Shown here piece after piece: positions 19,090 to 19,715 of a stretch of 50,849 nt of DNA. The stretch is from Escherichia phage BabyEgg. Under the pieces are notes generated by a model that did no database searches, was not told the origin of the DNA, and saw nothing but the letters and a program-made list of their open reading frames with translations. The stretch is taken from sequence record PP925846.1. The stretch is one strand, 5' to 3'. The translations under genes and the position numbers were made by a program. Position 1 is the stretch's first letter. Every line of letters starts with the position of its first letter.

Positions 19090-19404
19090 ATGGCAAAGAT
19101 GAAATTAACACTTGGCCCACTGCCGGACTTCAAGCTACCAGTAAACTTCGTTATGCCTGACGGGAGCGAACAGAAAATCATTTTCACCGTGAAGCACAAG
19201 AAAGCGACGGAAGTCCAGGAGCTTTACCGGAAAGAGGGGATCAAAGATTCCGACTTTATCATGAACATTGCGACGGGTTGGGATCTTGAAGAAGAATTTA
19301 ACCACGAAAACGCAAAACTGTTAGTCGATTATTACCCTGGGTCAGCGTTGGCGCTCGTTCAATCCTACTTAGGCGCTCTGGCTGGTCAGCGCGTAAAGGG
19401 TTAA
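19090..19404 (+). CDS. tail assembly chaperone (G-like)
   Basis: 104 aa directly upstream of tape measure; ends ...RVKG with heptamer A AAG GGT at 19395-19401. Confidence 0.6.
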   Translation: MAKMKLTLGPLPDFKLPVNFVMPDGSEQKIIFTVKHKKATEVQELYRKEGIKDSDFIMNIATGWDLEEEFNHENAKLLVDYYPGSALALVQSYLGALAGQRVKG

Positions 19405-19715
19405 GGCGCGCGGTTTACCTGTTTTACCAGAAGCCACCGACAGACGCAGAGCTTGAAGCGGTCGGATTAACACGCGCCGACTACGAAGGCGAGGAGCCGC
19501 CGGAGGTTATTTTCGATGAAAGCATGATGCAGTCATGGGATGTTTTTTGTGCAATGCAAACGCAGTGGAGAAGCGCCGGATCTGGTGCTTACGGATTTGA
19601 CTATAATGTTTTGCCGATGTTGTTCAGAATCTATAAAATAGAAGATGAAGAAATGGCCTTAAACGATTTGCGAATCATGGAACAAAAAGCATTAGAAATG
19701 ATGCACCAAAAATAG
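19090..19715 (+). CDS. tail assembly chaperone GT-like fusion via predicted -1 frameshift
   Basis: slippery heptamer A AAG GGT (X XXY YYZ) at 19395-19401; the -1 frame is open from there to the TAG at 19713-19715. Confidence 0.45.

Follow-up and report, generated by a model that had tools for sequence, protein, structure and literature searches.

Lambda-type G/G-T arrangement in a T1-like Escherichia phage, with a predicted -1 frameshift site abutting the G stop codon

Described tail chaperone frameshifts and the present locus

The tail assembly chaperones of phage lambda, gpG and gpGT, have been described by Levin et al. 1993 and by Xu, Hendrix and Duda 2004, 2013 and 2014, in work summarised by Atkins et al. 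2016 (PMC5009743). According to that summary, the G:GT ratio is 30:1, the tape measure protein is bound by G and the major tail protein by T, and neither is present in the virion. For the T1-like phages, the Stevie genome paper reports that the chaperones carry a conserved frameshift, and a joined frameshift CDS is annotated in U136B (Tlsvirus, U136B_045/046) and KLPN1 (Webervirus, KLPN1_36). A third case, insA-insB' of IS1, shifts at A_AAA_AAC, a weak heptamer for which no RNA stimulator has been established (Sharma et al. 2014); IS1 is an unrelated transposase system, and the likeness, a weak heptamer and a low-level fusion protein, makes it comparable in signal class alone.

The window, by which we mean the whole 50,849-nt stretch of DNA that was analysed, contains a locus whose arrangement and, judging from the sequence, whose mechanism are those of a lambda-type G/GT frameshift. 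As in lambda, two overlapping ORFs are found between the major tail and tape measure genes, the second of them in the -1 frame and without a start, and an X_XXY_YYZ heptamer lies near the end of G, where low-level shifting that yields much G and little G-T would be expected. Unlike lambda, where the heptamer is G_GGA_AAG and lies 15 nt upstream of the stop, the site here is A_AAG_GGT and abuts the stop of G. By their domain matches the proteins are assigned to the Phage_TAC_4 plus DUF1799 family (PHROG 17368), which is that of T1-like phages, and in pairwise BLASTP against the lambda proteins G gave E = 2.2 and T gave no alignment. Because similarity of G and T to their lambda counterparts is not detectable, the functional roles considered below rest on analogy and on Pfam naming. 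The chaperones of T1-like phages (Drexlerviridae; U136B, KLPN1, Stevie) are homologous, with identities to U136B of about 83% for G and about 92% for T, and these relatives have the same slip position, flush stop and flanking terminators as the window, but use A_AAA_AAC (A_AAA_GTY in Webervirus) where the window has A_AAG_GGT.

Positions 18300-19800 of the window match the reverse strand of MN158214.1, the record of Escherichia phage BEBK14, with 100% identity. BEBK14 is a T1-like phage (Drexlerviridae, Tempevirinae, Warwickvirus), and it was not mentioned in any of the papers searched. Over the same region, phages MatMar, WaterSpirit and Jahat_MG145 are 99.5-99.7% identical to the window, and BEK12A and BEK26 are 91.5% identical over 79% of the query. 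The preliminary description of this DNA had predicted a G-T-like chaperone fusion made by -1 frameshifting immediately upstream of the tape measure gene, and the order of genes on the + strand is indeed tube, G, T and tape measure. The major tail (tube) protein gene (18329..18991, 220 aa; from the ORF list) lies directly upstream of the G-T cassette, and its counterparts in Jahat_MG145, U136B and T1 bear the annotation major tail protein. The tape measure gene (19763..22687, 974 aa; from the ORF list and the annotations of relatives) encodes the protein on which G and G-T presumably act. Two ORFs, G and T, are placed between these genes, which is the G/GT arrangement. The predicted fusion is further supported by the family to which G belongs, by a conserved T that has no start, by the position of the slip site and by the annotations of relatives, and we consider it very likely that a -1 programmed frameshift in the style of lambda G/GT makes a 208-aa G-T in small amount.

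A G-T frameshift of this kind is ordinary and known, and what sets the BEBK14 record apart from those of U136B and KLPN1 is that it is missing from the annotation. BEBK14, Jahat, KarlJaspers and the T1 RefSeq record are annotated with two separate small proteins and no joined product; in T1 (NC_005833, 18872-19506) these are G and a truncated T, both labelled 'tail length tape measure protein'. The main value of the present analysis is one of annotation: the BEBK14 record, several of its relatives and the T1 RefSeq should carry the joined 208-aa G-T.

Reading frames of G and T

The 0-frame product of the locus is G, a tail assembly (tape measure) chaperone of 104 aa and 11.7 kDa encoded at 19090..19404 on the + strand, with an AAGGAG Shine-Dalgarno sequence 7 nt upstream of its start. 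G matches Pfam PF08748 (Phage_TAC_4) with E 3.8e-36, residues 1-103 aligning to profile positions 1-123 of 124, and its score of 124.5 bits, against a gathering cutoff of 21.1, places it in the family; it also matches phrog_17368 and phrog_569. The 3' end of the gene reads ...CAG CGC GTA AAG GGT TAA GGC..., and re-reading of the window bore out both this ending and every coordinate of the preliminary description. In the -1 frame, a TAA at 19299-19301 is followed by an open stretch, from 19302 to the TAG at 19713-19715, which overlaps G by 100 nt and contains no ATG, GTG or TTG before 19524. Its part beyond the slip site, the T extension (19401..19715, + strand), comprises 104 codons and the TAG and would be produced solely as the C-terminal half of G-T. 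Joined at the heptamer, the two halves translate to 104 + 104 = 208 aa (23.9 kDa), which is the length that had been anticipated.

The T extension carries a domain of its own. It matches Pfam PF08809 (DUF1799) over extension residues 22-101, with 47.7 bits against a cutoff of 26, and phrog_680 over residues 9-103 (E 1e-35), while the fusion as a whole matches PHROG 17368, which is built from full-length fusion products, over positions 1-211 of 213 (E 1.6e-109). No sequence-related solved structure for G-T was found in the PDB. The ATG at 19524 is extension residue 42, so that the DUF1799 match begins 20 residues and the phrog_680 match 33 residues before it; since the domain matches begin upstream of any possible start, independent initiation could not deliver the conserved domain. 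For the 41 codons that separate the G stop from this ATG, 28 distinct relatives were compared by codon position. Variable positions numbered 40 of 41 at the third position, 20 at the first and 17 at the second, and pairwise differences at positions 1, 2 and 3 came to 2367, 1572 and 7415; the encoded peptide is nearly invariant (LKRAVYL[FY]YQKPPTDAEL...), and the T-frame protein alignment is conserved as far as Ralstonia phages. This pattern indicates that the -1 frame extension is under protein-level selection, and it rules out the idea that the T region is a relic or non-coding.

In GenBank, the T domain of BEBK14 appears as a separate hypothetical protein of 63 aa (19524..19715, + strand), in our reading a truncated call. 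Its start region has two consecutive ATG codons (19524-19529) and, at 19502-19506, a GGAGG, so that the earlier statement that no ribosome binding site is evident for this ORF holds in part: the motif does exist, but it lies 17 nt upstream of the ATG at 19524, a poor spacing, and in the T frame it encodes conserved Pro-Glu-Val residues. Production of T from the ATG at 19524 as a free 63-aa protein, with no fusion, would agree with these two elements and with the separate annotation in BEBK14, Jahat, KarlJaspers and T1, but we regard it as very improbable: besides the distance and coding role of the GGAGG, the 41 upstream codons that such a protein would lack are selected at the protein level and belong to the domain matched by DUF1799 and phrog_680, and the methionine at 19524 is conserved only in close relatives, being absent from the Webervirus, Dhillonvirus, HK639, Ralstonia and Holland homologs. 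The starts annotated for T also differ widely among relatives, which suggests choices of gene callers rather than a real start. A downstream ORF that overlaps in the -1 frame and has no conserved start of its own is what the G/GT organisation entails. The same GGAGG is well spaced, at 9 nt, from another ATG at 19516 in the G frame, which opens an ORF of only three codons (ATG AAA GCA TGA); this pairing is probably incidental.

For two predicted tryptic peptides of G-T, AVYLFYQKPPTDAELEAVGLTR and ADYEGEEPPEVIFDESMMQSWDVFCAMQTQWR, all or some of the coding sequence precedes the ATG at 19524. The predicted junction peptide, GLR, is very short, and the sequence surrounding the junction is ...SYLGALAGQRVKGLRRAVY...

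The slip site in the window and in relatives

The heptamer A_AAG_GGT occupies 19395..19401 on the + strand, in the X_XXY_YYZ phase that the preliminary description had given it, to the base. It contains the tetramer A_AAG, encodes Lys-Gly in the 0 frame and would re-pair as AAA GGG after a -1 slip, and the TAA stop of G (19402..19404, + strand) follows it flush on the 3' side. It is the sole in-phase X_XXY_YYZ heptamer within G, and no other was found in the 100-nt overlap of G and T, where the only other in-phase tetramer, an A_AAA at 19314, was set aside as it is not conserved. An in-phase heptamer is by itself not rare: the crude ORF set of the window holds 57, or about 0.003 per codon. In just two of the 57 cases does the -1 frame continue for at least 100 codons, and 19395-19401 is one of them. 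The other is on the - strand at 10886-11140, where an 84-aa ORF carries AAACCCA in phase and the -1 frame then stays open for 210 codons; we rejected it as a frameshift site, since this shadow ORF runs antisense to real genes of the + strand, the ORFs 9124-10692 (522 aa) and 10761-12044 (427 aa).

A tblastn search with the fusion returned 1147 phage records, 1080 of them with a match covering at least 80% of the query, and each near-full-length match among those listed was in two pieces, consistent with two reading frames. We fetched 45 loci, ranging from 100% down to 27% identity (Klebsiella phage Holland_MM2) and including Ralstonia phages. In all informative loci the frame of T is -1 with respect to that of G, and a shift-prone site is flush with the G stop in 42 of 42 of them and in T1. 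The distance from heptamer to stop is zero in the window and in the 34 loci with a canonical heptamer, and the loci without one have the same layout of A_AAR, one codon and a stop; the stop is flush in every relative examined, as TAA or, in two, TGA. A slippery site in the overlap, at a position conserved among relatives, is a further feature of G/GT systems found here. The commonest form is A_AAA_AAC followed by TAA, as in T1 (A_AAA_AAC at 19181-19187, TAA through 19190), and one Ralstonia phage has G_GGA_AAC and then TGA. A pattern scan of IMG/VR gave 103 contigs, among which the local sequence takes 41 distinct forms (31 A_AAA_AAC, 4 A_AAA_GTT, 3 A_AAG_GTC, 2 A_AAA_GTC and 1 A_AAA_GCC), and in each of the ten matches listed the -1 frame is open for 104-107 codons. 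One contig (L026, IMGVR_UViG_2706796530_000001, 1195-1620) appeared to hold a naturally fused G-T, but its G has two separate 1-nt homopolymer deletions, including A5 for A6 at the slip site, that alter the G/T frame relation, and a sequencing error is the most likely cause.

The window's own form of the site, A_AAG_GGT, is a rare one and is absent from the IMG/VR pattern-scan matches. It was read directly in BEBK14, Jahat_MG145 and BEK12A, and MatMar, WaterSpirit and BEK26 are likely to share it, since the six records have at least 99% identity in the fusion and at least 91.5% DNA identity here. Four bases separate A_AAA_AAC from A_AAG_GGT and the X_XXY_YYZ form is kept, which we read as a sign of selection for slipperiness. 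On this reading the exchange would be a case from nature in which selection maintains slipperiness and a low dose of G-T, and not a particular sequence.

Several relatives, large clades among them, have sites that are not of the X_XXY_YYZ form: A_AAA_GTY in Webervirus (cp24, KLPN1 and VAC7, loci L037-L039), A_AAG_GTC in Sadiya (L034) and A_AAG_AGT in Holland_MM2 (L044), along with four IMG/VR loci (L058, L067, L068 and L080). At the homologous slip position these read GCA AAA GTY TAA, GCA AAA GCC TAA, GCA AAG GTC TAA or CAA AAG AGT TAA, and in KLPN1 the joined frameshift CDS is annotated despite the non-canonical site. What is invariant across the family is A_AAR, one codon and a 0-frame stop, rather than a full X_XXY_YYZ heptamer. 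The non-canonical sites of these relatives imply that the full heptamer is not required in the Phage_TAC_4 plus DUF1799 family, and the GGT half of A_AAG_GGT may contribute little in BEBK14.

Manner and level of the predicted shift

Production of the fusion, the G:G-T ratio, the chaperone functions and the register of the slip are all deduced here from nucleotide and protein sequences. In the proposed mechanism, most ribosomes translating G would stop at the TAA at 19402 and release the 104-aa G, and a small fraction, likely about 1% or less, would slip back one base at A_AAG_GGT (19395-19401) and go on to read TTA AGG CGC... as far as the TAG at 19713, producing the 208-aa G-T. By analogy with lambda gpG/gpGT, many copies of G, together with the G half of G-T, would form a coat around the tape measure protein, the major tail protein would be brought in by the T half (DUF1799), and both G and G-T would be absent from the finished virion. 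If G-T is not a virion protein, virion proteomics would miss it.

The level of shifting to be expected can be gauged from Sharma et al. 2014 (NAR 42:7210, Table S3), where all 64 heptamers were measured in E. coli. For AAAGGGU, the -1 shift was 0.134% with no stimulator, 0.368% with the IS911 stimulators and 1.598% with the IS3 pseudoknot, and for AAAAAAC the corresponding values were 0.163%, 0.189% and 0.739%, with reporter backgrounds of about 0.04-0.07%. By these published E. coli reporter values, A_AAG_GGT and A_AAA_AAC are weak but real shifters of one efficiency class, about 0.1-1.6%. The same authors found AAAGGGU in X_XXY_YYZ phase to be strongly under-represented in E. coli genes (z = -10.05). 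Our search for stimulators gave negative results at each level: the downstream fold of 19402-19500 has -29.8 kcal/mol with z = -1.0, no better than shuffles, and a local hairpin at 19405-19445 scores z = -0.14; across 19 diverse homologs RNAalifold returned 0 conserved pairs; Rfam detected no frameshift element, its sub-threshold matches falling on terminator hairpins only; and no conserved upstream SD-like element was visible on inspection of the relatives' loci. The locus does not belong with the structure-stimulated -1 PRF class of dnaX, IS3 or IS911 type, and as neither a stimulatory RNA structure nor an SD-like element was found, a low efficiency is to be expected.

Three registers of slippage can be envisaged at this site, namely A_AAG alone, the tandem heptamer, and the P-site G_GGT while the stop occupies the A site, and all three give one protein, ...RVKGLRRAVY... 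Because the product is identical, neither the sequence nor mass spectrometry of BEBK14 could tell the registers apart; in a relative with A_AAA_AAC the predicted junctions do differ, VKNLK after a tandem slip and VKKLK after a slip in the P site only. Since the family invariant is A_AAR, one codon and a stop, tandem slippage on all seven bases is no more than a candidate. A slip of a single tRNA in place of a tandem one, either tRNA-Lys on A_AAG (19395-19398) or P-site tRNA-Gly on G_GGT, with the flush TAA acting as a pause, is possible but on the whole doubtful. It would fit the invariants of the family and the sites of Webervirus (A_AAA_GTY/GCC), Sadiya (A_AAG_GTC) and Holland (A_AAG_AGT), at which the A-site tRNA cannot re-pair; it would fit as well the lack of any conserved structure found, the top rank of A_AAG among tetramers for shifting in E. 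coli (Sharma et al. 2014, Table S2), and a stop that is flush in every relative examined as against 15 nt away in lambda. Yet the full canonical heptamer is kept in 31 of the 41 distinct IMG/VR sequences and in most loci, and its retention in BEBK14 through four base changes suggests selection on the second triplet as well; the TAA could be conserved on account of the overlapping Leu-Lys/Arg codons of the T frame, and the GGGU tetramer was not shifty in reporters. Slippage by RNA polymerase in place of a ribosomal shift would find its substrate in the run of six A at the site in relatives. Six A is short for polymerase slippage, BEBK14 itself has AAAGGG, with a longest homopolymer of three, and non-homopolymeric variants occur at the same position, so that we assign this origin of the frameshift next to no likelihood.

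With a ribosomal -1 shift of the lambda style as the preferred account, the family comparison raises the tentative and rather unlikely reading that the signal common to the family is a compact one, A_AAR plus one codon plus a 0-frame stop, in which the stop would pause the ribosome and tRNA-Lys would slip. Since re-pairing is impossible at the middle codon in several clades, slippage of the Lys tRNA would be the common denominator. Older work exists on stop codons adjoining shift sites in E. coli, and from it we infer that a slowly decoded stop next to the site may promote the slippage; in the window, the TAA at 19402-19404 may have such a stimulatory role. If this were true, it would explain both the A_AAA_GTY sites of Webervirus and the drift of the BEBK14 subclade to A_AAG_GGT, and the G:G-T ratio would respond to release-factor activity. 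The invariant adjacent stop and the non-canonical sites of Klebsiella phages pose a testable question on weak frameshift signals that have no structure.

Two strong terminator-like hairpins flank the cassette on the + strand. One, a GC hairpin with a T-run picked up by the terminator scan between the tube gene and G (18996..19020), has a fold of -12.2 kcal/mol and z = -3.15, and at the equivalent place in T1 a rho-independent terminator is annotated. The other, AAAGCGCC/GGCGCUUU followed by a T-run, was found by terminator scan and folding between T and the tape measure gene (19721..19746; -13.7 kcal/mol, z = -2.98); it is conserved in U136B, and in T1 a terminator is annotated there. As terminators bracketing the G-T cassette, they probably lower transcript levels in steps, so that the chaperones and the tape measure protein are transcribed less than the abundant tube protein.
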